Assembly (NCBI GenBank): GCA_963717315.1
Contig: CAVQWA010000019.1
Coordinates: 131 to 64,130 of the forward strand
DNA from: an uncultured Gemmatimonadales bacterium
Lineage (GTDB): Bacteria > Gemmatimonadota > Gemmatimonadetes > Gemmatimonadales > GWC2-71-9
DNA length: 64,000 bases
Direction: 5' to 3'
Positions 4,522-63,724 of this stretch are shown here, piece by piece. How positions within the stretch are numbered: position 1 is the first letter of the stretch; the number at the start of each line of letters is the position of its first letter. A program made the position numbers and the translations under genes. Below the pieces are notes generated by a model. The model ran no database searches. It worked only from the letters and a program-made list of their open reading frames with translations, and was not told where the DNA came from.

Positions 4522-4626
4522 GGAGGGGGAGAAGGGAGAGGGGAGAGGGGACTGGGAGATCGGGGGATAGGTGGGCGGCGCCCGACCGGGCCCCCGCCCT
4601 CTCCCATCTCCCCTCTCCCACTCCCC
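4522..4626. repeat. Inverted pair of G-rich/C-rich heptamer arrays (imperfect long hairpin)
   Basis: 4522-4567 is GGAGGGGGAGAAGGGAGAGGGGAGAGGGGACTGGGAG... and 4591-4626 is CCCCCGCCCTCTCCCATCTCCCCTCTCCCACTCCCC. The arms are imperfect reverse complements. The pair sits between the start of gene 2003-4519 and the stop of the IscA-like gene. Confidence 0.8.
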
Positions 4627-21415: not shown

Positions 21416-21463
21416 GGGGGGGAACGGGGAACGGGGAGCGGGGAACGGGGAGCGGGAAGCGGG
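21416..21463 (+). repeat. Tandem G-rich heptamer array (GGGGAAC/GGGGAGC), G-quadruplex motif
   Basis: GGGGGGGAACGGGGAACGGGGAGCGGGGAACGGGGAGCGGGAAGCGGG: seven G3+ runs with 3-nt loops. Confidence 0.9.
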
Positions 21464-21499
21464 ACTGCGGAGGGTTGCACCTCACTGGGCACCTGGCCC

Positions 21500-23899: not shown

Positions 23900-24016
23900 C
23901 GCGACCTCCCGGTGAGGGACCCGGCCGCCGCGGGAGCCCTGCACCGCGGGGGGAGGGGGAGGAAGGCAGGGACCAGGGGAATTACGAGCCGGATGGCGGC
24001 AGAGTCAACCGGCGGC

Positions 24017-24607: not shown

Positions 24608-24625
24608 GACGCAGTATACCCCGGC

Positions 24626-25922: not shown

Positions 25923-25925
25923 GAC

Positions 25926-25949
25926 GGGGAGCGGGGAGCGGGGAGCGGG
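25926..25949 (+). repeat. Tandem GGGGAGC heptamers, G-quadruplex motif
   Basis: GGGGAGCGGGGAGCGGGGAGCGGG, in the divergent spacer between the small membrane ORF and sufE. Confidence 0.9.
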
Positions 25950-25969
25950 AACCGCACTAACTTACGTGC

Positions 25970-26865: not shown

Positions 26866-26872
26866 CGCCGCC

Positions 26873-29868: not shown

Positions 29869-31032
29869 ATGCGCGCCGCCCTCCTCCTCGCCGCGTTCGC
29901 CGTCCCCTTCCCCGCGCGCGCCCAGCGGCCGGACCCGACCCCGGGTTGGCCCGCGCTGGTCCGCACCCTCGACGCCTACGCCGACAGCGACCGGGCCGTC
30001 GGCGCCTCGGCGGCACTCGTGCGGGACGGGCGAATCGTCGCGCGGCATCACGTCGGCTTCGCCGACCGCGCCACGGGGCGACGGGTGGACGACCGCACGA
30101 TCTTCCACTGGGCGTCCATCACCAAGACGCTCGGCGCCGTGGCGGTGATGCAGCTCCGCGACCGGGGGCGCCTGTCGCTCGACGATCCCATCGTCCGATG
30201 GGTGCCGGAACTCCGGCGGCTGCACGACCCGTACGGGATGATCGACTCGATCCCCGTGCGGATGCTGCTCTCCCATTCGGCCGGCTTCCGGAACGGCACC
30301 TGGCCCTACGGCGGCGAGGCGTGGCAGCCGTTCGAGCCGACCGAATGGGGCCAGCTGGTGGCGATGATGCCGTACCAGCAGCTCGAGTTCCGGCCCGGCT
30401 CCGGCTACGGCTACTCGAATCCCGCCTACGTCTACCTGGCCCGGGTGGTGGAGCAGGAGTCACGCGACCCGTGGGTCGCTTACATCCAGAAGAACATCTG
30501 GGCCCCGCTCGGGATGACGCGCAGCTACACGGGCCTGACCCCTTACCACCTCCAGGCGGACCGCGGGCACGGGTACGAGATTCGGCGAATCGGGGACCGG
30601 GACTCGGTGCTGGACATCGGCGCCGACTTCGATCCCGGCATCACGATCCCGAACGGCGGCTGGAACGCACCGGTGGACGACGTCGCGGCGTGGGCGGCGT
30701 TCCTGCTGGGCCGGCCGGCCGGCGACGCCACCCGGGCGCGGTACCAGGGCGTGCTCGCGCGCGCCACGCTGGAGGAGATGTGGCGCCCGGTGCTGGCGTC
30801 GCGCGAAGGGTACACCGCCGGCGAATCGGTGGGGCTCGGCTTCTTCCTGCTGGAGCGGAACGGCCGCCGCCTCGTGGGGCACACCGGCGACCAGGCCGGC
30901 TACCGGTCCTTCCTCTATCTCGACCCCGCCGCCGGCACCGCGGTGATCGTCGTCCTCAACACGACGAACTACGCCCGGGACGACCGGGCCGGATGGGACC
31001 GGCTGGTGGAGGCGGGGGTGGGGGCGCTTTAG
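29869..31032 (+). CDS. Serine hydrolase, beta-lactamase/penicillin-binding (class C-like) family, secreted
   Basis: 387 aa with a signal peptide. SxxK = SITK (FHWASITKTLGAVAV). YxN = YSN. C-terminal HTGDQAGY. Confidence 0.88.
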   Translation: MRAALLLAAFAVPFPARAQRPDPTPGWPALVRTLDAYADSDRAVGASAALVRDGRIVARHHVGFADRATGRRVDDRTIFHWASITKTLGAVAVMQLRDRGRLSLDDPIVRWVPELRRLHDPYGMIDSIPVRMLLSHSAGFRNGTWPYGGEAWQPFEPTEWGQLVAMMPYQQLEFRPGSGYGYSNPAYVYLARVVEQESRDPWVAYIQKNIWAPLGMTRSYTGLTPYHLQADRGHGYEIRRIGDRDSVLDIGADFDPGITIPNGGWNAPVDDVAAWAAFLLGRPAGDATRARYQGVLARATLEEMWRPVLASREGYTAGESVGLGFFLLERNGRRLVGHTGDQAGYRSFLYLDPAAGTAVIVVLNTTNYARDDRAGWDRLVEAGVGAL

Positions 31033-31062
31033 GGGAGAGGGGAGAGGGGAGAGGGGAGAGGG
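31031..31062 (+). repeat. Tandem AGGGGAG heptamers, G-quadruplex motif
   Basis: AGGGGAGAGGGGAGAGGGGAGAGGGGAGAGGG begins inside the TAG stop (31030-31032) of the preceding gene. Five G runs with 3-nt loops. Confidence 0.9.
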
Positions 31063-31070
31063 CCTTCGAC

Positions 31071-32694: not shown

Positions 32695-32878
32695 GGGTCG
32701 CGGGTCACCAGGAATCGAGGAACGGGGAACGGGGTGCTTGCGCCGCCCCCCAGGGGTTGGGGGAAGGGTTGACCGTGGCGGGGAGCGGGTCAAGTCCCGG
32801 CCGCAACACCGGCCGGGGCTTCCTCGTATACTTCGGTGTCAGGCGCGCGGCCCTTCCCGCGGCCGCCGGGAATCCGCG

Positions 32879-33784: not shown

Positions 33785-33787
33785 GGG

Positions 33788-33892: not shown

Positions 33893-33951
33893 GTTGACGT
33901 GGGCCGGCGGCCGGGACACGTTCCCGTGCACTCCACTGACGGGAGGGACCG

Positions 33952-37384: not shown

Positions 37385-38551
37385 TCACAGCAGGCCGGTG
37401 CCCACATTGGGCCGGCCCTCGGCGAACCGGGACGGCCGGAATGCGCTGACGTCGAGCGGCGGCGGCTCCCCGACGATCAGCGCCGCCAGCGCCTCGCCCA
37501 GCGCGGGCGAGTGCATCACCCCGTGGCCTGACGAGCCGTTGACGAGGAAGAGCCCTGGGACCTCGGGCGCCTCCCCCAGGATCGCATGCCGGTCGGGCGA
37601 CATCTCGTAGAGCCCGCAGTGGCACGCCGCGGGGTCGATCGGCACCCGCGCCGCCGCCGGCAGCCGCGCCGCGGCCAGCGCCATCACCCTCGGCACCCAG
37701 TCGTCGCGCCAGGTCGGTTCGTCCGACTCCTCCTCCCCCACCTCGTGCGGCCAGAGCCAGAGGATCCGCCCGTCGCGCACCCGGGCGTGGAAGCCGTCCT
37801 CGACGTAGGCGGTCATCGGCATCGAGGGGGGCAGGGCCCCGGTCGGCACCGTGGCCGCCACCTGCCGGCGCACCGGGCGCACCGGGAGATCCAGGCCCGC
37901 CCTCGCCGCGAAGCGCCCCGCCCACGGTCCCGCAGCGTTCACCACCGCGTGCGCGGCGATCCGTCCATCGGTCGTCTCGACTCCCGCCACGCGCCCGCCG
38001 TCCCGCACGAGGCCGGTCACCTCGACGCCCCACTCGACCCGGGCCCCGAGCCGGACGGCCGCCTCGAGGTACCCGCGCGCGATGCCCATCGGGCGGATGA
38101 ACCCGTCCACCGGCGAGAAGACGCCGCCGATGATCCCGTCCGGCGCCAGCGCCGGATTGAGCTCGAGCACTTCCACCGCGCTGACCTCCCGCGGCCAGGG
38201 CGCCCCCGCCCCGTGCTGCACCGCCTGGGCCTGCCGGAGCACTGCGAGGTCCTCCTCCCGCCGCGCCACGAAGAGGTAGCCGAACGGCTGGTACCCGGGA
38301 TCCCCGCCAACCTCCGCCGCGAACGCCAGCAGCTTCTCCCGCGAGCGCACGGACAGCCGGACGTTCGCCGCGGTGTCGTACTGCACCCGGAAGCCGCCGG
38401 TGGCGCGGCCGGTGCTCCCGGCGCCGGGCCCGGGCGCACGGTCGAGCAGCAGGAGATCGCGCACCCCGCGCTGCACGAGATGCCAATCCACGCTCGCGCC
38501 CATCACGCCCGCCCCGACGATCACGACCTCGGTGCCCCGGGGCAGGGTCAC
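37385..38551 (-). CDS. FAD-dependent oxidoreductase (DAO family; glycine/sarcosine/D-amino-acid oxidase-like)
   Basis: 388 aa. N-terminal VVIVGAGVMGASV dinucleotide fold. C-terminal NGSSGHGVMHSPALGE is typical of the DAO family. Confidence 0.88.
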   Translation of the reverse strand: MTLPRGTEVVIVGAGVMGASVDWHLVQRGVRDLLLLDRAPGPGAGSTGRATGGFRVQYDTAANVRLSVRSREKLLAFAAEVGGDPGYQPFGYLFVARREEDLAVLRQAQAVQHGAGAPWPREVSAVEVLELNPALAPDGIIGGVFSPVDGFIRPMGIARGYLEAAVRLGARVEWGVEVTGLVRDGGRVAGVETTDGRIAAHAVVNAAGPWAGRFAARAGLDLPVRPVRRQVAATVPTGALPPSMPMTAYVEDGFHARVRDGRILWLWPHEVGEEESDEPTWRDDWVPRVMALAAARLPAAARVPIDPAACHCGLYEMSPDRHAILGEAPEVPGLFLVNGSSGHGVMHSPALGEALAALIVGEPPPLDVSAFRPSRFAEGRPNVGTGLL

Positions 38552-43000: not shown

Positions 43001-43179
43001 TCCCGCAGGCCTACCGCCGCCTGGGCGAGCTGTACGAGCAGGAGGGCGACCGCGCGAAGGCCGCCGACTGGTACCAGAAGTTCGTGGATCTCTGGCGCGA
43101 GGCCGACCCCGAACTGCAGCCCGTCGTCGCCGAAGTGAAGCAGCGCCTGGCCCAACTCAGCGGGGAGCCGAAGCGATGA
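40030..43179 (+). CDS. Ser/Thr protein kinase with TM segment and periplasmic TPR-like domain (start codon uncertain)
   Basis: The track gives ATG 40108, but that removes the glycine loop (YRIERELGGGGMSRVY). The frame is open back to 39919 and contains only CTG codons (40012, 40030). Motifs VIKVL, HRDIKPDN, DFGVAK, YMSPEQ. Confidence 0.85.
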   Translation: MTDFDGRLASVLGDQYRIERELGGGGMSRVYLAEEVKLGRRVVIKVLPPEMSAAVSVERFEREIRLAARLQHPHVVPFLTAGGGGDLLYYVMPYIEGESLRAKLAREGELPIAEAMEILRDATEALAEAHRQGIVHRDIKPDNILLSRGHGMVTDFGVAKAVAESGRGGTLTSIGVALGTPTYMSPEQAVADPHTDHRADIYALGCVAYEMLCGRPPFDAVTPQAMIAAHVTRQPDPVSRYRSTIPPALAAVVHRCLEKKPADRFQNADELLRALAGVMTPTGMTPAATAPYPIPDRGTAGRRVAAAHPLRVVGYFVLAAVAVLAVVAALAKGVGLPQWVMPAAIALLAVGLPVMVLTGLQERRRHVARTTGMHVATPAGLPALFTWKRAVLGGGLAFGALAVVTGGYMAARSFGIGGMGTLMATGALDARDPMVLADFTNRTPDSALGVSVTDALRVDLSQSPVVRLLDARAVRAGLERMQRDPATLLDAELARELAQRENAKAVITGEIGTVGSGFVLTARIVGASDGREMVALRETAKDEGEILAALDRLSKALRERIGESLKSLQNTERLERATTTSLAALKKYSEGVRLDDAGDYRAAYTALREAVAADSTFAMAWRKLGVVVPRAGVADSIGDDAITRAYRLRERLPPLERELAISSYYFGVDPVPDSAIAALRRAQAIDPEDRTSGTNLPYLLSLLGRYEEAEPLAREQLARDPSYFAFERLTVSLEGQGRTAEAESVATDFVRRYPTHPAGAIFLADNAFARGDYARSDSFARLPVLNQPGSPARVAALNLRARAAIVRGRLALADRLLDSMALEGTALGDSATMLGAFRRKLAADRGLRPVPRLSPSGLDSILRFPGVSRTASFGNSLYLGAMTAAESGDTATARRLFDEADRHLDAAGRRRVPGRAAAAAVLAREAGRYDEALRLAGQESPTFADPCARCADHMRARIWEAAGNRDSALAAYERALTRRAPGSSSFEEAAIPQAYRRLGELYEQEGDRAKAADWYQKFVDLWREADPELQPVVAEVKQRLAQLSGEPKR

Positions 43180-46100
43180 CGCAGCTGACCGACCGCCTGC
43201 AGCGCCACCTCGGCGACCAGTACCGCATCGAGCGGGAACTGGGCGGCGGCGGGATGAGCCACGTCTTCCTCGCCGAGGAGGTTCGGGTCGGCCGGAAGGT
43301 GGTCATCAAGGTGCTCCCGCCCGAAATGTCGGCCGCGGTGAACGTGGACCGCTTCGAGCGGGAGATCCGGCTCGCCGCCCGGCTCTCCCATCCGCACGTG
43401 GTGCCGTTCCTCACCACCGGCGGCGCGGGCGACCTCCTCTACTACGTGATGCCGTACATCGAGGGGGAATCACTCCGCGCCCGCCTCGACCGGGAACACG
43501 AGCTGCCGGTGCCGGAGGCGGTACGGATCCTCCACGAGGTGGCCGACGCCCTCGCCGAGGCGCACCGGATGGGCGTGGTGCACCGGGACATCAAGCCGGA
43601 CAACATCCTGCTCCGGGCGCGGCACGCCCTGGTGGCCGACTTCGGCGTGGCGAAGGCGGTGGCGGAGAGCGGCGGGTCGGGTGCGCTCACTTCGATCGGC
43701 GTGGCCCTCGGCACCCCGGCCTACATGAGCCCCGAGCAGGCGGTGGCGGACCCGAACGTGGACCACCGGACCGACATCTACGCGCTGGGCTGCGTGGCGT
43801 ACGAGATGCTCTGCGGCCGGCCGCCGTTCGAGGGAGGCACGCCGCAGCAGCTCATCGCGGCGCACGTGACCCGGCAGCCCGACCCGGTGGAGCGGTACCG
43901 CGAGATGGTCCCGCCCGCCCTGGCGGCATTGGTGATGCGCTGCCTCGCCAAGAAGCCGGCGGACCGGTTCCAGTCGGTGGACGAACTGCTGCACCAGCTC
44001 GACCTGGTGGCCACGCCCGGCGGGATGACGCCGATCGCGAGCACGCCGGTGGGGACGGCGCCCTACCCCGCGCCCTACCCCGCCACCGGCGCTGTGGCGG
44101 CCGGGCGGCCGGGCGGCTCGGCCGCCCATCCGCTGCGGGTGGCGGCGTACTTCGTCCTGGCCGCGCTGGCCGTCCTGGCCCTCGTCGCCGCCCTCGCCAA
44201 GGGCGTGGGCCTTCCGTCGTGGACCCTCCCGGCGGCGGTGGCGCTCCTCGCCGTGGGGATCCCGGTGATGGTCCTTACCGGCTTGCAGGAGCGGAAGCGA
44301 CACGTCGCCTACACCACCGGCCTGCACGTCCCGACGCCCACCGGGCTCCCGGCGCTCTTCACCTGGCGGCGCGCGTGGCTGGGCGGCGGGCTCGCGTTCG
44401 GCGCGCTGGCGCTCGCCACCGGGGGCTACGCCCTGGCGCGCAACTTCGGCCTCGGCGGGATGGGCACCCTGATGGCCACCGGCGCCCTCGACGCGCGCGA
44501 CCGGATGGTGCTGGCCGACTTCGCCAACCGCACCGCCGACTCCACCCTCGGCGCCTCGGTCACCGACGCGCTCCGGGTGGACCTGGCGCAGAGCCCGGTG
44601 ATCCGGCTGCTCGACGCCGCGGCGGTGGCGGAAGGGCTCCGGCGGATGCAGCGCGACGGCGCCGCCGGGCTCGACGTGGACCTCGCGCGAGAACTGGCGC
44701 AGCGGGAGAACGCCAAGGCGGTGATCGCGGGCGAGATCGGCCCCGTGGGTGCCGGGTTCGTGCTGACCGCGCGGATCGTCGCTGCCGCCGACGGGCGCGA
44801 CCTGGTGTCGCTCCGGGAGACGGCGAAGGACGAGACCGAGATCATCGCGGCGCTCGACAAGCTCTCCAAGCGGCTCCGGGAGCGGGTGGGTGAGTCGCTC
44901 AAGTCGCTGCAGAACACCGAGTCGCTGGAGCAGGTGACCACCGCCTCGATGGAGGCGCTCCGGAAGTACAGCCAGGCGGTCCGGCTCGACGACGCCGGGC
45001 AGTCCGTACCGGCCTACGGGCTGCTCAAGGAGGCGGTGGCGGCGGACTCGACCTTCGCGATGGCGTGGCGGAAGGCTGCAGCGATCGGCCCGCGCGCCGG
45101 GGCGCCGCAGGCGGAAGTCCGGGCGGCGTATCGCCGGGCCTTCGAGCTGCGGGCCCGGCTCCCGGTGCTCGAGCAGCGGCTCACGGAGGCGTCCTTCTAC
45201 AGCCAGGTCGAGATCGACCCGGGAAAGGAGGAGGCGGCCTGGCGCGCCGTCCTGGGCCTCCACCCGGACGAGCGCGTGGCGCTCAACAACCTTGCCCTGG
45301 AATTGAACGAACAGGGGCGCTACGTCGAGGCGGAGTCGCTGGCACGGCGAGCGGTGCCGGTTGACCGGAGCTGGTTTTCCTACGGCCACCTGGCGGCGGC
45401 GCTCACGGGGCAGGGGCGCTTCGCCGAGGCCGACTCGGTCCTCCAGGAGCTGGCCGCGAACTCGCCGGGCAGCCCCCGGAACGACTGGCTCCAGGCGATG
45501 GCCGCTTATTCGCGGCGCGACTACGCCCGGGGCGACAGCCTGAGCGCCGAGCTCAAGCGCCGGTTCCCCGGCGCCTCGGAGCACCTCGCCAGCATGAACC
45601 TGCGCGCGGGATCGGCGCGCGCCACCGGGCGGCTGGCCCAGGAAGCCCGGCTGACCGACTCGGTCCGGGCGCTCGCCACCAGCATCGGGAATGCCGGTGC
45701 CCGGCACGAAGCGGTGCTTCGCCTGGTGGACGCCGACCACGCCTTCCGGCCCGTACCCCGCTACGCCGCGGCCGACGTCGATTCCGTGCTCCGGGCGTAC
45801 CCGTTCGACAGCGTCCCGGTCGAGGACCGGTCGTATTACTGGTTCGCCACGACCTACGCCGACCTGGGCGACCTGGCCAGCGCCCGGCGCCTCCTGGCCG
45901 AGGGGGACCGCGTCCTGCCGGCCTACCTCCGGAGCGGTGAGGCACGACTGACAGCCGAGGGCGCCGTGGCGATGGCGGAATCCCGCTGGCGCGACGCCGT
46001 GGCCCGGTTCCGGGCGGCGGAGGCGGCGCCGGACGCGTGGTGCCGCAACTGCCTCGCGTTCGCACAGGGCAAGGCGTTCGACCGGATGGGCGAGGCCGAC

Positions 46101-46346
46101 TCGGCGCTGGCGCAATACGAGCGGGGGATCCGCTCCCCGGAGCACCCGCGGCTCCGCTCCGACGCCGCCGGGCTCGCAACCGCCCTCCGCCGTGCCGGCG
46201 AGCTCGCCGAGCAGAAGGGCGACCGGGCCAGGGCCCGGGAGTACTACACCCAGTTCCTGGACCTCTGGGCCCGGGCCGACGCCGACCTGCAGCCGGTGGT
46301 GCGGGACGTGCGGGGCCGGCTGGCGGCGCTGGGGGGGGACAGGTAG
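43176..46346 (+). CDS. Ser/Thr protein kinase with TM segment and periplasmic TPR-like domain (paralogue of the preceding gene)
   Basis: 1056 aa. ATG 43176 overlaps the upstream TGA (ATGA). MTQLTDRLQRHLGDQYRIERELGGGGMSHVFLA, HRDIKPDN, DFGVAK. Collinear with the preceding kinase over its whole length. Confidence 0.9.
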   Translation: MTQLTDRLQRHLGDQYRIERELGGGGMSHVFLAEEVRVGRKVVIKVLPPEMSAAVNVDRFEREIRLAARLSHPHVVPFLTTGGAGDLLYYVMPYIEGESLRARLDREHELPVPEAVRILHEVADALAEAHRMGVVHRDIKPDNILLRARHALVADFGVAKAVAESGGSGALTSIGVALGTPAYMSPEQAVADPNVDHRTDIYALGCVAYEMLCGRPPFEGGTPQQLIAAHVTRQPDPVERYREMVPPALAALVMRCLAKKPADRFQSVDELLHQLDLVATPGGMTPIASTPVGTAPYPAPYPATGAVAAGRPGGSAAHPLRVAAYFVLAALAVLALVAALAKGVGLPSWTLPAAVALLAVGIPVMVLTGLQERKRHVAYTTGLHVPTPTGLPALFTWRRAWLGGGLAFGALALATGGYALARNFGLGGMGTLMATGALDARDRMVLADFANRTADSTLGASVTDALRVDLAQSPVIRLLDAAAVAEGLRRMQRDGAAGLDVDLARELAQRENAKAVIAGEIGPVGAGFVLTARIVAAADGRDLVSLRETAKDETEIIAALDKLSKRLRERVGESLKSLQNTESLEQVTTASMEALRKYSQAVRLDDAGQSVPAYGLLKEAVAADSTFAMAWRKAAAIGPRAGAPQAEVRAAYRRAFELRARLPVLEQRLTEASFYSQVEIDPGKEEAAWRAVLGLHPDERVALNNLALELNEQGRYVEAESLARRAVPVDRSWFSYGHLAAALTGQGRFAEADSVLQELAANSPGSPRNDWLQAMAAYSRRDYARGDSLSAELKRRFPGASEHLASMNLRAGSARATGRLAQEARLTDSVRALATSIGNAGARHEAVLRLVDADHAFRPVPRYAAADVDSVLRAYPFDSVPVEDRSYYWFATTYADLGDLASARRLLAEGDRVLPAYLRSGEARLTAEGAVAMAESRWRDAVARFRAAEAAPDAWCRNCLAFAQGKAFDRMGEADSALAQYERGIRSPEHPRLRSDAAGLATALRRAGELAEQKGDRARAREYYTQFLDLWARADADLQPVVRDVRGRLAALGGDR

Positions 46347-46414
46347 ACGGGAAGACGGGAAGACGGGAAGACGGGAAGTTACGACCCGCCTTCCCGTCGT
46401 TCCGTCTTTCCGAC
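46346..46414. repeat. Octamer (GACGGGAA) tandem array with inverted partner: hairpin between convergent genes
   Basis: GACGGGAA x4 (46346-46377), a 13-nt loop, then TTCCCGTC GTTCCGTC TTTCCGAC (46391-46414). The first unit shares the G of the kinase TAG stop. Confidence 0.9.
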
Positions 46415-46419
46415 CGAGC

Positions 46420-46980: not shown

Positions 46981-46991
46981 GGGGACCTCAC

Positions 46992-47024
46992 GGGGAACGG
47001 GGAACGGGGGAACCGGGAACGGGG
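46992..47024 (+). repeat. Tandem GGGGAAC heptamers, G-quadruplex motif
   Basis: GGGGAACGGGGAACGGGGGAACCGGGAACGGGG, 12 nt upstream of the minus-strand start at 46980. Confidence 0.9.
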
Positions 47025-47985: not shown

Positions 47986-48636
47986 TCAGGACTCGGAGCC
48001 GAGCCGCGTGGCCCGCTCCAGGAGGTCGAGCTTCTGGCGGTACGCGGCGAGGAGCATCCCACCGGCGTCGGGGTCCGCCGGGCGCTCCAGGACGGAGGCG
48101 CGCGCCTCGGCGATGGCGGCATCCACCACGGCGAGGTGACGGCCGAGGGCCTCGCGCACCGACGGAGTGAGCGCCGCCTCGGCGTCAAGCGCGCGGACGA
48201 GCTCGGCGGTGGCGCGCTGGTAGTCGGCTTCGAGGGCGGCGAGTCGGGGGTCGAGGGCGGCGCCCGCAGAGTCACGAGTCGCGAGTCGCGAGTCGCGGTC
48301 CCGGACCACGAGTACGGTGGCCAGGCTGGACAATGTCACCAGCAGCACCGCCGCGGCGGCGAGGAGCCAGGGCGACCGCGGGGAGCGGGAAGCGGGGGGA
48401 GTCGCGAGTCGCGAGTCGCGAGTCGTGAGTCGTTCCAGGGCAGCCCACACCGCCGGCGGCGGCGTGATCTCCGCCGGGGCGCGGCGGGCGCGCTCGCGGA
48501 TCGCCAGCAGGTCTGCGTGGAGGGCAGCGCAGGCGGCGCAGGCGGCAAGGTGGGCCTCGACCTCGGCCCGCTCGGCACCCGAAAGCTCGCCGTCGAGCAG
48601 GGCGTCGATCCGCACGTCCATTTCAGCGCAGGTCAT
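47986..48636 (-). CDS. Anti-sigma factor (zf-HC2 type), single-pass membrane protein
   Basis: 216 aa. N-terminal MTCAEM...EAHLAACAACAALHADL is a zf-HC2 motif. TM segment PWLLAAAAVLLVTLSSLATVLVV. ATGA overlap with the sigma gene stop. Confidence 0.85.
   Translation of the reverse strand: MTCAEMDVRIDALLDGELSGAERAEVEAHLAACAACAALHADLLAIRERARRAPAEITPPPAVWAALERLTTRDSRLATPPASRSPRSPWLLAAAAVLLVTLSSLATVLVVRDRDSRLATRDSAGAALDPRLAALEADYQRATAELVRALDAEAALTPSVREALGRHLAVVDAAIAEARASVLERPADPDAGGMLLAAYRQKLDLLERATRLGSES
48269..48296. repeat. GAGTCGC heptamer array (4 units) inside the anti-sigma gene
   Basis: GAGTCAC GAGTCGC GAGTCGC GAGTCGC. Encodes RDRDSRLATRDS immediately after the TM helix. Confidence 0.9.
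48399..48433. repeat. GAGTCGC heptamer array (5 units) inside the anti-sigma gene
   Basis: GAGTCGC x3 then GAGTCGT x2. Encodes LTTRDSRLATP immediately before the TM helix. Confidence 0.9.
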
Positions 48637-49332: not shown

Positions 49333-50880
49333 ATGTCCCGTACCCTCGCGCGGCGCGCACTCCCCGCGCTCGTCGCCCTGCTCCTCGCCAGCCCCGCCGC
49401 CGCCCAGCAGGTCGTGACCGAGCGGCTCGACCTGGCCGCACTCGCGAAGATCCGGGCGGAAGCCACCGAGCACTCCCGGATCGAGTCGCTGGCGGGATAC
49501 CTCACCGACGTCATCGGGCCCCGCCTCACCGGGTCGCCCTCGATGGACCGCGCCAACGACTGGGCGGTGGCCACCTTCACGAAGTGGGGCCTCGCCAAAC
49601 CCGGCACCGAGGCGTGGGACTCCGCCTTCGGCCGCGGCTGGGAACGGGTGAGCTACAGCGGCCGCTTCCTCGAGCCGTTCGTGCAGCCGCTGAACGCCAC
49701 GAGCCAGGCCTGGTCGGGGAGCACGAAGGGCACGGTCACTTGCCGAGTGGTCGCGATGGAGGTTCAGGACACCGCCGAGCTGGCGCAGTGGCGCGGCAAG
49801 CTCAAGGGCGCCTGCGTGCTCCGGAATCCGCCGGCCGACATCCCGCCGGAATTCGATCCCACGCCCCGCCGGCTCGACGCCGACTCCCTGCTCGCGCCGG
49901 TCCCGGAACGGCCCCAGGGGCCGGGCCAGCGCGACCCCGACCGGATGGCGCGGTTCCGCCAGATGCAGGCCGTGAACCAGGCGGTCGGCGCCTTCCTCCG
50001 CGCCGAGCAGCCCACGGCGCTCCTGATTCCCTCGGGCTGGACCTACCACATCCTGCGCACCGGCGGGCATCCCGACGGCCGGCTGGCGCGCGACAGCGTC
50101 TACAACCCGATCCCGGCCCTGCTGGTGAGCCACGAGCACTACGGCCAGATGTGGCGGAACGCGAAGCGCGGCGTCCCGGTGCGGCTCGAGCTCAACGTGC
50201 GGAACCGGTTCCTCGACGCCGACCGCTCGGAGCGGAACGCGTTCGCCGAGATTCCCGGCGGCGACAAGGCGGACGAGCTGGTGATGATCGGGGCGCATTT
50301 CGACAGCTGGCACAGCGGCACCGGTGCCACCGACAACGGGGCCGGCTCGGTCGTCATGATGGAGGCGATGCGGATCCTGAAGGCCACCGGGCTCCCGATG
50401 CGCCGCACGGTGCGGATCGGCCTCTGGAGCGGTGAGGAGCAGGGCCTCATCGGTTCGCGCTCCTGGGTGCGGGCGCACGGCGCCGACCTCGGCAAGGTCT
50501 CCGCCTACCTCAACGTGGACAACGGCGCCGGGCGGCTCCGGGGGATCTGGACCCAGTCGAACGCGGCGGCCGGCCCGGTCTTCGAGGCGATCTTCAGCCC
50601 GCTGGCGGACCTCGGCGTCGTCGCGGTGCGGCACGGCAACACCGGCGGCACCGACCACCTCGCGTTCGACGCGGCGGGCGTGCCAGGATTCAACTACATC
50701 CAGGATCCGCTGGAGTACGGGATCCGCACCCATCACTCGAACGCGGACACCTACGAGCGGTTCGTGATGGACGACCTGAAGCAGGCGGCCACGGTCGTCG
50801 CGTGGACGGTCTACACGCTGGCCAACCGCGAGGAGATGATGCCGCGGAAACCGGCGGGAGAACAGGCCACGGCGCGGTAA
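49333..50880 (+). CDS. M28-family aminopeptidase with PA domain, secreted
   Basis: 515 aa with a signal peptide. MIGAHFDSWHSGTGATDNGAGSVVMMEAMR, GLWSGEEQGLIGS, TDHLAFD. Confidence 0.88.
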   Translation: MSRTLARRALPALVALLLASPAAAQQVVTERLDLAALAKIRAEATEHSRIESLAGYLTDVIGPRLTGSPSMDRANDWAVATFTKWGLAKPGTEAWDSAFGRGWERVSYSGRFLEPFVQPLNATSQAWSGSTKGTVTCRVVAMEVQDTAELAQWRGKLKGACVLRNPPADIPPEFDPTPRRLDADSLLAPVPERPQGPGQRDPDRMARFRQMQAVNQAVGAFLRAEQPTALLIPSGWTYHILRTGGHPDGRLARDSVYNPIPALLVSHEHYGQMWRNAKRGVPVRLELNVRNRFLDADRSERNAFAEIPGGDKADELVMIGAHFDSWHSGTGATDNGAGSVVMMEAMRILKATGLPMRRTVRIGLWSGEEQGLIGSRSWVRAHGADLGKVSAYLNVDNGAGRLRGIWTQSNAAAGPVFEAIFSPLADLGVVAVRHGNTGGTDHLAFDAAGVPGFNYIQDPLEYGIRTHHSNADTYERFVMDDLKQAATVVAWTVYTLANREEMMPRKPAGEQATAR

Positions 50881-56863: not shown

Positions 56864-59216
56864 GGGGCACCTCCGGCACGGGTGGGGGAGAAGCTGTCGG
56901 ACGGGCGCAGGAGGGGCAAGGGGAGCGGGGAGCGGGGCCGAGCCGCCGGGCCGCCGGGCCGCCGGACCGCCCGGGTTACATTGCGAAAGCCCGTCCCCGC
57001 CGGAGGCCCCCATCCCCACCCCGCTCGCCCTGGTCAGCAACCGCCTCCCGTTCGCCGCGGAGCGCCGCGCGGGGCGCCTCACGCTCACGCCCGCCCCCGG
57101 CGGGCTGGTGACGGCGCTGCGCGGCGCGCTCGCCGCACGGGGAGGCCGGTGGATCGGGTGGCCGGGAATCTCGTCGGAGGACCTGGCGCGCGCGGGTGGG
57201 CTGCCGCTGCCGGAGGACCCGCGCGTCGAGTACGCGGATGTGCCGCTCTCGGCCACCGAGGTGAGCGAGTACTACGGGCAGTTCGCCAACCGTACCCTGT
57301 GGCCCCTCTTCCACTACTTCGTGGAGCACGCGCGGGTGGACCGCGCCGCGTGGCCCGCGTACGAACGGGTCAACGAGCGGTTCGCCGAGGTCGCGGCGGC
57401 GGAGGCCCCCGCGGACGCCACGATCTGGATCCACGACTACCACCTGATGCGCGCCCCGGTGCACCTGCGCGCCCGGCGGCCCGACGCACCGATCGCGTTC
57501 TTCCTCCACATCCCCTTCCCCGCCGCGGACGTCTTCCGGATCCTGCCCTGGAGCCGGGCGCTCCTCCGGGGGATGCTCGGCGCCGACTACGTCGGCTTCC
57601 ACACCGCCTCCTACGCGACCCACTTCCTGGACAGCGTGGAGCGGCTGCTGGGCGGCGAGGTGGACCGGTCGCGCGGCACGGTGCAGGTCGAGGGACGGGA
57701 GGTCGCCACCGGCGTCCATCCGGTCGGCATCCCCGTGGCGGCCACCGAGGCGCGCGCCCGCGCCGCGCTCGCCCGCCCGGCGCCGCGCCGGGCCGAGGGC
57801 GTTCGCGAGATCCTCGGCGTGGACCGGCTGGACTACACCAAGGGCATCGGGGAGCGGCTGCTGGCGATCGAGCGACTGCTCGAGCGGCACCCGGAATACC
57901 GGGGGAAGATCGTATTCACCCAGGTGGCGGTGCCCAGCCGGGAGCGGGTGGCGGAGTATGGCCGGCTGAAGCGGGATGTGGACGAGATGGTGGGCCGGAT
58001 CAACGGCCGCTTCTCCGAGGAGGGCTGGAGTCCGGTGCGCTACCTCGCCCGCTCGCTCGACCAGGCCATGCTCGCCGGGCTCTACGCCCGCGCCGAGGTG
58101 GCCCTCGTCACGCCACTCCGCGACGGGATGAACCTGGTGGCCAAGGAGTACGTCGCGAGCCAGGTGGGGGCCGAGCCCGGGGTGCTGGTGCTGTCCGAGC
58201 TGGCCGGGGCGGCGGAGGCCCTGCAGGAGGCGGTGATGGTGAATCCGTTCGACATCGACGGCGTGGCCGAGGCGACCCACGCGGCGCTCGCGATGCCTGC
58301 CGTGGAGCGCCGCGCGAGGATGGCGGCGCTGCGCGACCGGGTGCGCGAGCTCGATGTCGCCGCGTGGGCCGACGGCTTCCTCGCCGCCGCGGAAGCCGCG
58401 GCGGGCGAAGAGGGCGCCGGTCCCGGGCCCGCGGACATGGTCGCCCGGCGGCTCGCGCCCTGGCTCGGGGGCCGCCCGCGCACCGCGCTCTTCCTCGACT
58501 ATGACGGCACGCTGACGGGCATCGTGGAGCGGCCGGAGGCGGCGCGGCTCGACCCGCCCGCGCTCGATGCCCTGCAGCGGGCGGCGTCGGGCCAGCACCT
58601 CGACGTGGCGGTCGTGAGCGGGCGCTCGCTCGAGGACCTGCGGGCGCGCGTGCCGGTGCCGGGAGTCACGCTCGTGGGGAACCACGGGTTCGAGATGGAG
58701 GGGCCGGGGCTCCACTGGCGGCATCCCGACGTGGGCGCCGCCCGCGAGGCGCTGGAGGAGGCGAATCGCCGGCTCGACGCGCTGGGGGAGCCCGGGGCGT
58801 GGGTGGAGGACAAGGGCCTCACGCTGAGCTGGCACCTCCGCCCGCTCCCGCCGCGGGCGCGGAGCAGGGCGGAGCGGCGCGGCGCGGCCATCCTCGAGCG
58901 GCTCGGGCTGCGCGCCGTCCCGGGGAAGGCCGTACTCGAGGCCCGGCCCCCACTCGAGTGGCACAAGGGACTCGCCGTGCTCCAACTCCTCCGGGCGCGC
59001 TACGGCGAGGAGTGGACCGGCCGGGTGCGTGCCCTCTACGTCGGTGACGACCGCACCGACGAGGATGCCTTCCGGTCCCTCGCCGGCCTCGGCCGCTCCA
59101 TCCGCGTGGGTGACGGCCAGGCCACCGCCGCCACCGACCGACTCCCCGACCCGGAGGCGGTGACCGCGCTGCTGCGCTGGCTGGCGGCCGGGCCGTGGCT
59201 GGGACCGCCGGCATGA
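56847..59216 (+). CDS. otsA: Bifunctional trehalose-6-phosphate synthase / trehalose-6-phosphate phosphatase (OtsA-OtsB fusion; start uncertain)
   Basis: Track ORF 56817..59216. GT20 region [10 protein letters not shown]...LWPLFHY...IWIHDYHLM...DRLDYTKGI...NLVAKEY. HAD region LFLDYDGTL...[12 protein letters not shown]. There is no ATG/GTG/TTG in frame between 56847 and the conserved VSNRLP at 57033. Confidence 0.85.
56913..56974 (+). repeat. GGGG-N3 heptamer G-quadruplex motif followed by CCGCCGGG octamer array
   Basis: GGGGCAAGGGGAGCGGGGAGCGGGG (56913-56937), then CCGCCGGG CCGCCGGG CCGCCGGA CCGCCCGG (56943-56974). Confidence 0.88.
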
Positions 59217-61030
59217 GGGACCGCTACTGGCCGATCGCGGACTATGGCGTCATCGGTGACCTCCGCACGGCCGCGCTGGTCAGCCGGGACGGCGGCGTGG
59301 ACTGGTGGTGCCTGCCGCGCTTCAACGATCCGTCGGTCTTCGCCGCACTCCTCGACGCCGAGCGCGGGGGGCGGTGGCGGATCGGGCCGGCCGCGCCGGC
59401 AACCAGCGAGCAGCGGTATCTCCCCGGGACGAACGTCCTGGTGACCACCTTCCATTTCGAGGCCGGCGGGGCCGCGGCGGTCACCGACTTCCTCCCGATG
59501 GGGGCCGCACGCATCGCCGAGCCGGTGCTCTTCCGCCGGGTGGTGGGGCACCGGGGCCGGGTCCCGATGGCCACGGTGTTCCACCCGCGGTTCGCGTACG
59601 GGCGGGATGAGGCCCGGCTCACCGCGCGCCGGGCGGGCCTCACCGCGACCGATTCCACCCACGCGCTGGCCCTCTCGGCCTGGCCCGAGCTCGAGTGGGC
59701 GATGGAGGGAGGTGCGGCCACCGCCCGGTTCGACCTGGAGGCCGGCGAGGAGCGCTGGTTCGTCCTCCGCTGGGACCACGACGAGACGCCGGCCGCCGTC
59801 ACCCTCGGGCCCCAGGCCGCGCTCGACGCCACCATCGACTATTGGGACACGTGGGTGGCGCCGCTCGACTACCACGGCCCGTACCGCGCCGAGGTGCAGC
59901 GCAGCGCGCTCGCGCTCAAGCTCCTGCAGTACGAGCCGAGCGGCGCGATCGTGGCGGCCCCGACCACCTCGCTGCCGGAATGGCTCGGCGCGGGGCGCAA
60001 CTGGGACTACCGCTATACCTGGCTGCGCGACTCGGCGTACGTGCTCTACGCGCTCGACTCCCTCGGCATCCTCAGCGAGGCGGAGGCCTTCATCCGGTTC
60101 CTCGTCCGCGCCTGCCGGCGGGACGACGCGAGCCACCTGCAGGTGCTCTACTCCCCCCACGGCGATCGCGAGGCGGACGAGAGGGTCCTCGACCACCTGG
60201 AGGGGTACGCCGGCTCCGGGCCGGTGCGCATCGGCAACGGGGCCGCGAACCAGTTCCAGCTCGACGTGTATGGGGAACTGCTGGACACCATCGCCATCGC
60301 CCACCGGACGCAGGCGCCCGGCGAGGCGGCGTGGGCCAGCATGAACCGGCTCGTGGACTGGGTCGCCGACAACTGGCGCCGGCCGGACTGGGGGATCTGG
60401 GAGGAGCGGCTCGCGCCGCGGCACCACGTCTCCAGCAAGGTGATGGCCTGGACCGCGCTGGACCGGGGGGCCGCGCTGGCGGAGCAGCACCAGCTCCGGG
60501 GGGACGTCGCCCGGTGGCGCGCCGAGGCGGAGGCGGTGAAGGCCGAGGTACTGGATCGGGGGTGGGACCCGGGGCGGGGGACGTTCGTCCAGGGGTATGG
60601 CGAGCCGGCACTCGACGCCTCGGTGCTCCTGATCCCCAAGGTGCACTTCATTCACCGCACCGACCCCCGGGTCCGGAGCACGCTGGACGCCGTCCGCCGT
60701 GAGCTCGGCGCCGGGCCGGAGGAGCTGATCTACCGCTACCGCACCGCCGACGGCCTGAATGGCGACGAGGGCGCCTTCGTCGCCTGTTCCTTCTGGATGG
60801 TCCAGAACGTGGCGCTCACGGGCGATTTCGACGAAGCGGAACGGCTCTTCCGCCTCCTGCTCCGCCGCGCCAGCCCGCTCGGCCTCTTCGCCGAGGAGAT
60901 CGACCCGCGCACCGGCGACCACCTCGGCAACTATCCGCTCGGCCTGTCGCACGCGGCGTTGATCAACACCGCGGTGATGCTGGAGCGGCTGCGGGCAGTC
61001 GGGCAGTCGGACAGTCGGACAGTCGGATAG
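59213..61030 (+). CDS. Glycoside hydrolase family 15 (glucoamylase/trehalase-like)
   Basis: Track ORF 59195..61030 with ATG 59213 (ATGA overlap with the otsA-otsB stop). YWPIADYGVIGDLRTAALVSRDGGVDWWCLPRF, NWDYRYTWLRDSAY, CSFWMV. The C-terminal tail is encoded by the octamer repeat. Confidence 0.88.
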   Translation: MRDRYWPIADYGVIGDLRTAALVSRDGGVDWWCLPRFNDPSVFAALLDAERGGRWRIGPAAPATSEQRYLPGTNVLVTTFHFEAGGAAAVTDFLPMGAARIAEPVLFRRVVGHRGRVPMATVFHPRFAYGRDEARLTARRAGLTATDSTHALALSAWPELEWAMEGGAATARFDLEAGEERWFVLRWDHDETPAAVTLGPQAALDATIDYWDTWVAPLDYHGPYRAEVQRSALALKLLQYEPSGAIVAAPTTSLPEWLGAGRNWDYRYTWLRDSAYVLYALDSLGILSEAEAFIRFLVRACRRDDASHLQVLYSPHGDREADERVLDHLEGYAGSGPVRIGNGAANQFQLDVYGELLDTIAIAHRTQAPGEAAWASMNRLVDWVADNWRRPDWGIWEERLAPRHHVSSKVMAWTALDRGAALAEQHQLRGDVARWRAEAEAVKAEVLDRGWDPGRGTFVQGYGEPALDASVLLIPKVHFIHRTDPRVRSTLDAVRRELGAGPEELIYRYRTADGLNGDEGAFVACSFWMVQNVALTGDFDEAERLFRLLLRRASPLGLFAEEIDPRTGDHLGNYPLGLSHAALINTAVMLERLRAVGQSDSRTVG

Positions 61031-61056
61031 TCGGGCAGTCGGATCGTCCGACCGTC
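60995..61056. repeat. Octamer ([G/A][C/T]AGTCGG) tandem array, 6 units plus partial inverted end
   Basis: GCAGTCGG GCAGTCGG ACAGTCGG ACAGTCGG ATAGTCGG GCAGTCGG ATCGTCCGACCGTCC. Same unit as 33788-33835. It contains the GH15 stop TAG (61028-61030). Confidence 0.9.
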
Positions 61057-63165
61057 CTATTCCAGCCCCTCCCGCTTCACCACCAGCGTCTCGTCCCCCG
61101 TCCCGAACGGCATCGTCCCCACCGGCCGGACCGTGCCGGGCGGGAGGCCGGGAACGTGCGCTTCAGCCACCAGCTCCGTCGCCGTCGAATCCGGGAGGAT
61201 CTCGAGGATGACCCCGGTGTCGGGCGGAGCCACCAGCGCGTAGCGCCAGCCACGCCCGTCCGGCAACGCCGCGGTCGGCAGCTCGAGCCCCGCGAGCCGG
61301 GCGACGCGGGGGGGGCGATCGAGGACGAACTCCAGGCGGCGCGTGCCCGCGGGCGCGGTGACCCGGAATCGTGCTGCGCCGTCCCCGGCCCTTCCGGGCA
61401 GGCGCTCCAGCCGCAGGCTCCCGGGGTCCGCCGCCACCCTCACCTCCGTGTTGTCCGGCCGCGGCCACGTCGCCGAGTGATGCGCGCCCCGGAGCGCCCA
61501 GGCTCCCACGCCCAGCGCACCCGCCAGCGCCGCCGCCGGCACGATCCACCAGCGTCGCGGGTCGAGCTCCGCCACCATCGGTGCGAGGAGCCAGGTGGAG
61601 AGCGCACAGAGCGCGGCGACCGCCCCGGCGGGGAGCGGGCCCGTGCCCAGGCCGAGGAATGCGAGCGGGATGAGCGGAACCACGACCGGAAGCAGCGCCA
61701 GTGTGGCCACCCATCGCGCCCACGGCGGGCCGGTCTCGTCGGAGAGGAGCGCCCGCAGCAGCAGGCCCGCTGACGCGCCGGCCGCCGGCACCAGGAAGAG
61801 GTACGACCCGGCCGGCAGCCGGAGGGCGAGCAGCCCCGCTCCCGCCACCCAGAGGACGGCGGCGCCGGCCGAAAGGGCTTCGGGAGCGCCCCATCGCCGG
61901 GCGAGGCGGAGGAGGACGAGGGCCACGCCCGAAGCCAGGACGAGGGGCGCGATCGCGAGGGCCGGGTGCCACTCCAGGACGCCGGCAGTGGATCGCCGTG
62001 CCAGCACCGCGCCCAGGCCGACCCGGAATCCGACCGCGGACGTCACCGCCAGTGCGGTGGCGACCAGCGCGCCCACCGCCCCCAGCACGATGCCGCCGGC
62101 GCGCAGCCGGCCGCGATGCAGACCGAAGCCGATGGCCGTCCCGAGCGCCAGCACGGTGGTCACGACGAGGGCCCAGGTGTAGCGCAGTGGCCACCAGACC
62201 AGGCCAAGCAGTGGCGCGGAGAAGAACGCGGCGCTGCCGCCGCCCGCGGTGTCGGCGGGCGGTCCTTCCAGCGCGAACCTCCGCGCCAGCTCCAGCACCG
62301 CGTCGCCCTGCGACTGGAGCGTCCGGCGGTCGAGCCGGCCCACGCTGTCCAGCGGCGTGTGGTAGGCCGCCACGTCGCCGAGGAAGGCGAAGTTGAGTCC
62401 CGGGGTGCCGAGAGCCCGGAGTTCGGTGAAGTCGGTGTCGTTGGGGAGCAGCTGGTAGAGCGCGTAGAAGAGGGAGGACGCGGTCGGCGCCCGCACCTCC
62501 TCGGCGTAGGCCGCGATGGTGGCGAGGTTGGGGGATCCGGTCTCGAACATGAGGGACCGGCCGCCCGCCCCGCGCGCGTCCACGTTGATCACCACGCCCA
62601 CCTCGCCGCGCCAGGGGTGGGACGCCACGAAGGCGCGGGCGCCGAGCATCCCCTCCTCCTCGGCGTCGGTGAAGAGCGCGATCACGTCGTGCCGGAGCGG
62701 GGGCCCGACGCGGAGCGCGCGCATCACTTCCACCAGGATCGCGGCGCCGGCCGCATTGTCCGCGGCGCCCGGTGCGGCGGCGTGGCCGTCGTAGTGCGCC
62801 ACGAGCAGCACCGCGGGCCCGCCATCGGTGCCGCGCAGCCGGCCCGCCACGTTCTGCACCACCGCGGCCTTGGGGGCGCGGGGCGAGGGCTGGATGGCCT
62901 CCTGGGTCAGGGTGTCGGCGTCCAGGATGCCCATCACCCGCGCGAGCCACCTGCGCGACCGCTCGTGTCCCTCCGAGCCGGGCGGCCGCGGCGAGCGCGC
63001 GAGCTGGCGGACGTGTCGCGCCGCCCGCCCCGCCGAGAACTCGAACCGCGACGGCTCCGCGTCCGGGAGGGCCGGCGGCACCAGGCCGTGGCGCACCCCG
63101 GCGGTGACCAGGGCCGCGAGGGCCACCGCCTCGAGCAGGCGCCTCATGCCGCCGTGAGCTTCCAT
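61057..63165 (-). CDS. M28-family peptidase fused to a polytopic membrane domain
   Basis: Track ORF 61057..63825 with the start at ATG 63163-63165 (or 63145-63147, MRRLLEAVALAALV). LLVAHYDGHAAAPGAADNAAGAAILVEVMR, FTDAEEEGMLGA, then about 8 hydrophobic helices and a C-terminal soluble domain. Confidence 0.82.
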   Translation of the reverse strand: MEAHGGMRRLLEAVALAALVTAGVRHGLVPPALPDAEPSRFEFSAGRAARHVRQLARSPRPPGSEGHERSRRWLARVMGILDADTLTQEAIQPSPRAPKAAVVQNVAGRLRGTDGGPAVLLVAHYDGHAAAPGAADNAAGAAILVEVMRALRVGPPLRHDVIALFTDAEEEGMLGARAFVASHPWRGEVGVVINVDARGAGGRSLMFETGSPNLATIAAYAEEVRAPTASSLFYALYQLLPNDTDFTELRALGTPGLNFAFLGDVAAYHTPLDSVGRLDRRTLQSQGDAVLELARRFALEGPPADTAGGGSAAFFSAPLLGLVWWPLRYTWALVVTTVLALGTAIGFGLHRGRLRAGGIVLGAVGALVATALAVTSAVGFRVGLGAVLARRSTAGVLEWHPALAIAPLVLASGVALVLLRLARRWGAPEALSAGAAVLWVAGAGLLALRLPAGSYLFLVPAAGASAGLLLRALLSDETGPPWARWVATLALLPVVVPLIPLAFLGLGTGPLPAGAVAALCALSTWLLAPMVAELDPRRWWIVPAAALAGALGVGAWALRGAHHSATWPRPDNTEVRVAADPGSLRLERLPGRAGDGAARFRVTAPAGTRRLEFVLDRPPRVARLAGLELPTAALPDGRGWRYALVAPPDTGVILEILPDSTATELVAEAHVPGLPPGTVRPVGTMPFGTGDETLVVKREGLE

Positions 63166-63553: not shown

Positions 63554-63588
63554 GGGGAGCGGGGAGCGGGGAGCGGGGAACGGGGAGC
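63554..63588 (+). repeat. Tandem GGGGAGC/GGGGAAC heptamers (5 units), G-quadruplex motif
   Basis: GGGGAGC GGGGAGC GGGGAGC GGGGAAC GGGGAGC. Another short heptamer run, AGCGAAT AGCGAGC AGCGAGC, follows at about 63613-63633. Confidence 0.9.
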
Positions 63589-63724
63589 GGACCGCGAATC
63601 GCCATCGGCGACCAGCGAATAGCGAGCAGCGAGCCGCGTGGCGCCCAGTCCCAACGCATTGTGGCAGCGGCGGTTAACGTGTCCCGGCCGGCCCGGCACG
63701 GAACTGGCGATTCGCGGGCGCATC

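Follow-up and report, generated by a model that had tools for sequence, protein, structure and literature searches.

In the 64,000-nt stretch of DNA analysed here (positions 131 to 64,130 of contig CAVQWA010000019.1, from an uncultured Gemmatimonadales bacterium; hereafter the window), short intergenic spacers carry tandem arrays of a G-rich heptamer, GGGG plus three nucleotides (G4N3). We consider these arrays to be, on balance, probably 7-nt repeats with the unit GGGG(A)(R)(C) that were amplified in this lineage, that belong to a quadruplex-prone class of heptamers and that take their orientation from the adjacent gene. The window is essentially one whole metagenome contig of soil type, with a GC content of 73% all along its ~64 kb, and the best matches of its proteins, judged by protein similarity, place the host in the Gemmatimonadales. 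Its gene map, built on the GC content of third codon positions (GC3) and checked with Pfam, has 41 of 57 genes (72%) on the minus strand.

A first-pass annotation of the bare sequence had proposed a family of such arrays at seven sites, and Tandem Repeats Finder (TRF) returned a period-7 tandem array at each of them (3.6–6.4 copies, 86–100% matches), so that the family is real. Nine plus-strand sites, and no minus-strand site, match the strict pattern (GGGGNNN)x2 followed by GGG. Counted as GGGGNNNGGGGNNNGGG, it gives 18 overlapping matches at 9 sites, all on the plus strand, compared with 1.02 ± 1.19 expected on both strands; none of 100 dinucleotide shuffles reached 18. At two of the strict sites, 4475 and 62873, the match is a short run of G-rich letters inside or bordering a coding region, with no array. 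All seven arrays lie outside open reading frames (ORFs) with a coding GC3 signal, and the repeats are thus over-represented between genes. They are not coding repeats, since a period of 7 is no multiple of 3, the GC3 signal is missing and the arrays adjoin starts that lead into signal peptides; CRISPR and iterons were rejected on period and context. Arrays are far rarer in the control loci, which were fetched by protein similarity independently of the pattern, from a metagenome scan with a GH15 alignment, and are mostly relatives at 40–46% identity: one strict array was found in 85 loci (0.82 Mb; 33 loci with GC ≥ 0.70), against nine in the 64-kb window. L205, a syntenic relative at 89% protein identity, has three strict arrays in 18.5 kb, and the high local density is a property of the lineage.

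Six of the seven arrays lie 3–105 nt upstream of start codons on the minus strand, and each presents its G-rich strand as the antisense strand of that gene. Four of these had been recognised in the first-pass annotation, before the starts at 4519, 21314, 25922 and 46980, and we found two more. The array at 4522..4567 (TRF 4522–4559), an imperfect one of GGAGAGG/GGGGAGA type, begins 3 nt upstream of start 4519 of a BNR/phosphodiesterase gene. GGGGAAC and GGGGAGC units make up 21416..21467 (~7 units; TRF 6.4 copies at 21419–21463), 105 nt from the start of a DUF4142 gene at 21314. A perfect (GGGGAGC)3.6 array (100% match) at 25925..25953 (TRF 25925–25949) occupies a 47-nt divergent spacer, 4 nt from start 25922 of a gene for a 58-aa membrane protein and with sufE on its other side. 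The GGGGAAC-type array at 46990..47024 has ~5 units (TRF 4.9 copies) and stands 12 nt from start 46980 of a secreted-protein gene, while GGGGCAA(GGGGAGC)2GGGG at 56913..56937 (~3.5 copies; TRF 56920–56937) stands 50 nt from the start of an AsnC-type regulator gene at 56863. An octamer array, (GCCGGGCC)4 at 56937–56971, adjoins it directly. The last of the six, (GGGGAGC/GGGGAAC)5.3 by TRF at 63554..63590, is followed by a loose (GCGAGCA)n array and lies ~44 nt from a start at ~63510, placed by alignment to the start of the orthologue in the relative L120. Support for the start codons near the arrays comes from N-termini that are signal-peptide-like or hydrophobic right behind the ATG, and from matching gene lengths in relatives.

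The seventh array, a perfect (AGGGGAG)4.6 (100% match) at 31031..31062, overlaps the TAG stop of a plus-strand beta-lactamase-family gene (29869–31032), and its G-rich strand is the sense strand. An eighth array has its G-rich strand on the minus strand: 4591..4626, on the sense strand 4 nt past the stop of a minus-strand Fe-S assembly gene (4630–4956), is the inverted partner of 4522..4567, the two forming the 3′ and 5′ arms of a hairpin (segment 4515–4635, −42 kcal/mol, z = −5.6). Two weaker cases had also been suggested. At 32719..32734, on the plus strand ~25 nt upstream of minus-strand start 32694, only 2.3 units of GGAACGG support the longer array proposed at 32719–32797, and 23945..23979 (given before as 23948–23979), upstream of a minus-strand rhodanese gene whose true start is near 23899 as judged by homologue length, is G-rich on the plus strand but has no tandem structure.

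Every array, including those at 31032 and 4591–4626, is thus placed either antisense before a start or sense after or over a stop, and in each the 5′ end of the G-rich strand adjoins the end of an ORF. Arrays of other units keep the same polarity: one at 39840 is upstream and antisense, and those at 33796, 46345 and 60992 follow or overlap stops on the sense strand. Base composition leans the same way, the 30 nt before starts being C-rich on the sense strand with a skew of −0.096 for plus-strand genes and −0.215 for minus-strand genes.

The first-pass annotation had stressed that the G-rich strand is always the plus strand apart from the inverted partner, which is correct for the window (seven arrays plus, one minus), and had presented this as holding although most neighbouring genes are on the minus strand. 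The conjunction should be "because": arrays stand antisense before starts, and as the minus strand encodes 41 of 57 genes, G-rich strands fall mostly on the plus strand. Taken without regard to genes, a 7/7 bias has a two-sided P of 0.016. Were the six upstream-antisense arrays allotted at random to genes whose upstream spacer is usable (27 minus, 12 plus), minus-strand genes would receive all of them with P = 0.11, or 0.14 with plain gene counts; with the one after-stop array included, the value becomes 0.028. The bias that remains after conditioning on gene direction is weak (P ~0.03–0.14), and the one-strand pattern has largely been shown to reflect the direction of the neighbouring genes. 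Seen against about seven independent sites, these values and the fact that the pattern was noticed after the event leave some room for a sampling accident in a single 64-kb window, with the arrays themselves real; as independently arisen arrays of syntenic relatives share the polarity, which points to a systematic cause linked to gene or strand, we regard such an accident as highly improbable.

The turnover of the arrays in relatives is clearly evidenced. The syntenic loci compared come from relatives characterised by GH15 identity (L120, 92%; L121, 87%; L124, 78%) or rhodanese identity (L205 and L206, 89%; L208, 86%). A comparison of copy numbers between related genomes, which the first-pass annotation had proposed, gives different numbers at shared sites, and some arrays are replaced or degenerate. 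In L205 the shared sites are occupied on the same strand, but copy numbers or units differ: ~5 units at 21419, where the window has ~7 and L208 has (GCTGGAT)3; a single GGGGAGC at 25926, where the window has 3.6 units; (GGGGAAC)3 at 31032, at the same position by the stop codon as the window's (GGGGAGA)4.6; and a 6.5-unit (GGGGAAC) array 3 nt from the start codon at 32719, where the window has 2.3 units. At 56913 the window has an intact array, L120 a degenerate one, L121 (GTCGGACG)4 in its place and L124 a decayed one; the array at 63554, likewise intact in the window, has a heptamer-periodic, degenerate counterpart in the L120 orthologue. At 23945–23979 the relatives are less G-rich than the window. 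More distant relatives have unrelated 7–8-nt units in the same spacers, and the convergent spacer between the GH15 and M28 genes holds a different tandem unit in each relative.

The arrays have only the heptamer in common. Each has flanks of its own, which are orthologous to those at the corresponding site in relatives. Turnover at preserved sites between orthologous flanks points to a slippage-type repeat. The changing content of the sites is not the behaviour of a conserved sequence-specific element, and a mobile element is rejected on the flanks. The arrays would therefore be fast-evolving simple-sequence repeats that grow, shrink and become homogenised by slippage in the manner of microsatellites, their origin probably lying in slipped-strand mispairing from G-rich seeds in short spacers beside gene ends.

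As the first-pass annotation had stated, the seven arrays are intergenic and their sequences satisfy the canonical quadruplex rule. All seven do so with tracts of three or more G (G3+, four tracts, loops of 1–7 nt), and six of seven with tracts of four or more (G4+). For G4+ tracts the motif count is six to zero in favour of the plus strand. With G3+ tracts there are 20 on the plus strand (12 intergenic) and eight on the minus strand (two intergenic); the imbalance is intergenic and coding DNA is balanced. When G-quadruplex (G4) folding was enabled in ViennaRNA, the G strand of every array was predicted to fold as a quadruplex (−10 to −34 kcal/mol), whereas the C strands, as single strands, were predicted to be essentially unstructured (0 to −2 kcal/mol). 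Quadruplex formation by the arrays is a prediction of these calculations. Predicted structure is also low in initiation regions (−40 to +12) behind arrays, which belong to the least structured of the window's 38, at 0.0, −6.2 and −7.4 kcal/mol, compared with a mean of −16.5 kcal/mol for all 38 and of −20.1 kcal/mol for intragenic segments.

These predictions suggest how a neighbouring gene could set the orientation of a slippage-grown array. Where an array lies upstream of a start, the complement that the mRNA leader would carry is rich in C and poor in G; it is predicted to lack structure and may be harmless or even helpful in a genome of 73% GC. Were such an array reversed, the ribosome-binding region would receive an RNA quadruplex, and this orientation is probably selected against. 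After stops, arrays whose sense strand is G-rich, frequently accompanied by a C-rich partner, could yield a 3′ structure. The positions show that orientation is defined relative to the adjacent gene and not to the chromosome strand. With most arrays upstream and antisense and the minus strand encoding 41 of 57 genes, the G-rich strand ends up, largely for this reason, on the plus strand.

Several observations weigh against orientation by the adjacent gene. About 12 plus-strand genes have upstream spacers and none of them carries a C-rich array on the plus strand, where a gene-linked model predicts ~1.7; the deficit is not significant, but it points toward an additional strand effect. The GC skew of spacers, read on the plus strand, is still +0.049 once arrays and tRNAs are removed, and third codon positions hint at a plus-strand G excess of ~+0.02 that does not depend on genes (p ~0.055–0.065). 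In relatives, 11 of 13 period-7/8 arrays made of unrelated units are G-rich on the strand that corresponds to the window's plus strand. At loci of other Gemmatimonadota, arrays after stops seem to outnumber those placed upstream and antisense, which makes the composition of the window somewhat unusual; gene calls outside the window are crude, and the after-stop count is partly an artefact of array masking, with real stop codons checked by eye. Lastly, slippage, selection on leaders and quadruplex folding are steps that we infer rather than observe.

Some of these signals would suit a replication-linked arrangement, in which all arrays of a replichore would have their G-rich strand on one and the same replication strand, either through a leading-strand G excess or through expansion and contraction that depend on whether the leading or the lagging strand is the template. 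The plus-strand excess (9:0 for the strict pattern, 12:2 for intergenic G3+ motifs), the G excess of spacers and third positions independent of gene direction, and the common strand of the unrelated arrays in syntenic relatives are in its favour, and for bacteria an enrichment of G4 motifs on leading strands, in line with GC skew, has been reported (PMC12581993). Most of the strand bias, however, is already explained by gene direction, and the direction of replication through the window is ambiguous: GC skew would make the plus strand leading, whereas the 41 of 57 genes and a five-tRNA cluster would make it the minus strand. In other Gemmatimonadales, 8-kb blocks show unpaired arrays on both strands (L080 and L088), and the heptamers of Xanthomonas and Nostoc show no leading/lagging preference and near-equal strand counts (PMC4692102). 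The first-pass annotation had asked for the bias to be set against both transcription direction and GC skew. The former accounts for most of it, as described above; the latter gave no significant association across 106 loci selected by pattern from many taxa (array strand versus local skew, mean +0.009, p = 0.08). We consider a replication-linked origin of the pattern unlikely, if the foremost of the alternatives. Its stronger form, that the lineage's G4N3 arrays (~1 per 8 kb) are polarised by replication beyond the effect of the adjacent gene and across whole replichores, is improbable; if true, polarity arising through orientation-dependent expansion or selection would be a property absent from the published Xanthomonas/Nostoc class.

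The preservation of sites beside the same gene ends in relatives, even with another unit, also raises the question of selected cis-regulatory elements whose copy number tunes expression. Such elements might be structure-free C-rich leaders or Rho-loading (rut-like) tracts, G4 structures on the template strand of 5′ regions, or RNA quadruplexes and hairpins at 3′ ends that terminate or stabilise transcripts. At least four G-tracts are present in all arrays, and the predicted lack of structure in C-strand RNA and in array-bearing initiation regions would suit such elements. For 3′ ends, hairpin-plus-U terminators are not enriched, so that other signals may be needed, and inverted pairs with the G arm before the C arm stand directly after stops in the window and in many Gemmatimonadota loci. 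Effects of G4 motifs that depend on position and strand in E. coli are cited by Rehm et al. (PMC4692102), who found no regulatory role for the heptamers themselves. Arrays are absent, decayed or replaced in relatives at 78–87% protein identity with no compensation seen, and the neighbouring genes are functionally unrelated. Across taxa, orientation to transcription is not consistent, with 14 arrays versus 12 between co-directional genes on crude calls, and a rule by which arrays lie nearer to the 5′ neighbour was likewise not reproduced with such calls. No canonical sigma-70 promoter or terminator was detected at the arrays; in 20500–34000 no array has a terminator-like site, and the hairpin at 4515–4635 is not followed by a T-run. 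Selected regulatory elements are, in our assessment, quite unlikely.

Slippage-grown repeats oriented by the adjacent gene remain our preferred account of the window, and the unit is widespread beyond it. An exact scan for GGGGARCGGGGARCGGGGARC, that is (GGGGARC)3, with one genome per species, returned at least 119 blocks from at least ten phyla. Among the matches listed, ~24 are from Gemmatimonadota and Longimicrobium, ~15 from Xanthomonadales/Lysobacterales and eight from cyanobacteria, and others are from Streptomyces and other Actinomycetota, Chloroflexota, Planctomycetota, Verrucomicrobiota and Acidobacteriota. The G4N3 unit often follows straight after real stop codons in other Gemmatimonadota loci, and convergent inverted pairs also occur in L008, L010, L021, L027, L029, L059, L074, L101 and L118. 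The contigs L010, L041, L059 and L111 begin or end inside a G4N3 array or an inverted pair, suggesting that short-read assemblies break at these repeats and that draft genomes count too few of them.

One motif, (GGGGAGC)2-3GGGGAGCGGTC, recurs in apparent coding regions of contigs from other Gemmatimonadales metagenome-assembled genomes: L018 (1951–1968), L044 (4488–4505), L071 (1523–1540), L088 (2353–2370 and 5744–5761) and L096 (5629–5646). The flanks in L018 and L044 are identical, and the motif may be a low-complexity coding insert or an effect of crude gene calls.

Within the window, the spacers also hold tandem arrays of other 7–8-nt units, namely GAGTCGC, GTCGGACA, CGGACAGT, AGACGGGA, GGCGGCTC, GCCGGGCC, GCGAGCA and CACTCGG, and several of these occur in inverted pairs that fold into long hairpins. 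The G4N3 arrays represent one variety of this more general habit. Three octamer arrays, (GTCGGACA)n at 33785–33890, (AGACGGGA)4 at 46345–46419 and (CAGTCGGA)6.5 at 60992–61057, begin at or just past stop codons and make up long hairpins together with inverted copies. The one at 60992 overlaps the GH15 gene at its 3′ end, in a spacer whose unit is GAGCCGCC in L120 and a GGGACGG hairpin in L121. GAGTCGC forms an inverted pair between the tRNA-Trp and tRNA-His genes (12174–12253), and (GAGTCGC)4-5 arrays at 48269–48297 and 48399–48432 lie within a minus-strand zf-HC2 anti-sigma factor gene (47986–48636), where they flank a predicted transmembrane segment.

A second kind of repeat, unrelated to the heptamers, is a dispersed family of ~60–70 nt ('TTCACCGCGGAGGCGCGGAGGGCCGCGGAGAAC...'), found at 342–448 and 636–695, at 13985–14089 and 14199–14272, and at 37311–37385. 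At the first two loci the copies are inverted arms ~100–200 nt apart, and at the third there is a single arm (37311–37385). Arms of different loci are 86–93% complementary. The family has the look of repetitive extragenic palindromic (REP) sequences or MITEs. Between the inverted arms of the first element lies a T-rich (TTGTTC/TTCTTG)n tract of ~80 nt (541–620), a stretch of low GC in this 73% GC contig.

A near-palindromic TAAnTTAC is conserved 3–7 nt upstream of the sufE ATG, beside the array at 25925..25953 (window 25950–25972, L205 7938–7974, L208 2170–2200). It may be a bidirectional −10-like element, in which case sufE may be leaderless and the heptamer array may constitute the whole leader of the divergent 58-aa gene.

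The genes of the window are an ordinary chromosomal set, including Fe-S assembly, rhodanese, YceI, ApaG and SufE proteins, glyoxalases and a beta-lactamase-family protein, together with two Ser/Thr kinases, an extracytoplasmic function (ECF) sigma and anti-sigma pair, OtsA-OtsB, a GH15 enzyme and an M28 peptidase. The two Ser/Thr kinase-TPR genes are adjacent paralogues (40108–43179 and 43176–46346, ~1,020–1,056 aa each) with 78–85% nucleotide identity over 300-nt stretches, and look like a recent tandem duplication. A gene for an N6/N4 DNA methyltransferase (31493–32335) has no visible restriction partner and is absent from the syntenic region of L205. Five tRNA genes form a cluster on the minus strand, and tRNAs were the only RNA families that an Rfam search found in the window. 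A further tRNA-Gly, called by ARAGORN at 49703–49786 inside a well-supported ORF and not confirmed by Rfam, is probably a false positive.

These observations extend a little-studied class of G-rich heptamers to a poorly characterised soil phylum, in which their local density is unusually high. They also frame a testable idea: in very GC-rich genomes, the form that a repeat takes in the transcript may filter its orientation, since a C-rich leader is predicted to be free of structure and a G-rich one would put a quadruplex at the ribosome-binding site. Current views of bacterial G4 biology are unchanged, as repeats of this class have been described already, and so have asymmetries of G4 motifs between strands. 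A replication component, if real, would be an instance of a general phenomenon that is already published (PMC12581993).

Among known systems, the enrichment of G4 motifs on leading strands of bacterial genomes (Quadrupia, Genome Res 2025, PMC12581993), an effect that follows GC skew and is limited to certain phyla, resembles the window in its one-strand excess over tens of kilobases and in a small G excess on the same strand. The published effect is genome-wide, statistical and tied to skew, whereas the bias in the window is largely explained by gene direction. Chromosome-orienting motifs of KOPS/AIMS type have a strand skew that reverses at the origin and terminus; in the DNA compared here, a 64-kb contig and blocks of 8–20 kb from relatives, local signs of replication direction conflict. 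REP-type palindromes and 3′-end hairpins come to mind for 4522–4567/4591–4626 and for the octamer pairs at 33785–33890 and 46345–46419, which make strong hairpins after stops. The arms of the window's hairpins, however, consist of tandem short units and not of a single conserved palindrome, and most G4N3 arrays are unpaired. No RAYT-type transposase is encoded in the window, and a REP- or MITE-type element is ruled out for the G4N3 arrays, which have no conserved whole-copy unit with terminal inverted repeats.

Long simple-sequence repeats with units of 5–11 nt were reportedly described by Mrazek et al. in 2007 as over-represented for heptamers and mostly intergenic; they are said to be typical of large, high-GC genomes of non-pathogens, and polymerase slippage was reportedly proposed. 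That class is statistical and has no rule of position or strand; the window supplies a Gemmatimonadales example of it, dominated by a G4N3 unit. Rehm et al. cite the 2007 study (PMC4692102, ref. 33).

The first-pass annotation had likened the arrays to the short tandemly repeated repetitive (STRR) sequences of cyanobacteria, and aptly so: the STRR1 unit, CCCCAGT, is the complement of a G4N3 heptamer. STRR sequences were defined in heterocystous cyanobacteria, whose genomes are low in GC. Both are tandem intergenic heptamers, and the (GGGGARC)3 matches listed include Fischerella, Chamaesiphon, Nostocales and other cyanobacteria. The unit sequences and host phylum differ, and units like CCCCAGT, by which STRR membership is defined, do not make up the window arrays, which are analogues of STRR and not members, a likeness of kind with no evidence of common descent. 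STRR heptamers are mentioned for Calothrix by Rehm et al. (PMC4692102).

The closest match is the class that Rehm et al. described in 2015 (PLoS One, PMC4692102), contrary to the first-pass annotation, which knew of no equivalent description for a genome of this type. A literature search for Gemmatimonadetes and G-quadruplex together found no papers. The class comprises G-rich, G4-forming heptamers, GGGAATC in Xanthomonas and GGGGA(C/T)T in Nostoc, that lie antisense within 50 bp upstream of genes or sense just past or overlapping stops, that frequently form convergent inverted pairs and whose length varies between relatives (PMC4692102). The window arrays differ from it in their units (GGGGAGC, GGGGAAC and GGGGAGA) and 73% GC Gemmatimonadales host, in the evidence for G4 folding, which for their units is computational prediction, and in their one-strand bias, where the published genomes have near-equal strands and no replichore preference. 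Three of the seven stand between divergent genes, compared with 7–9% in Rehm et al., and they occur at an apparent density of ~1 per 7–9 kb, compared with ~1 per 27 kb in X. campestris (186 repeats). Both have a 7-nt unit made of a G3–4 tract plus 3–4 nt, in tandem from two copies upwards and usually with four G-tracts; both are strongly intergenic, stand by ORF ends and form convergent G/C inverted pairs; and in both the sites are common to relatives while length and sequence vary, with no link to mobile elements or to a class of genes. The window arrays thus share every testable defining feature of the G-rich heptamer class of Rehm et al.

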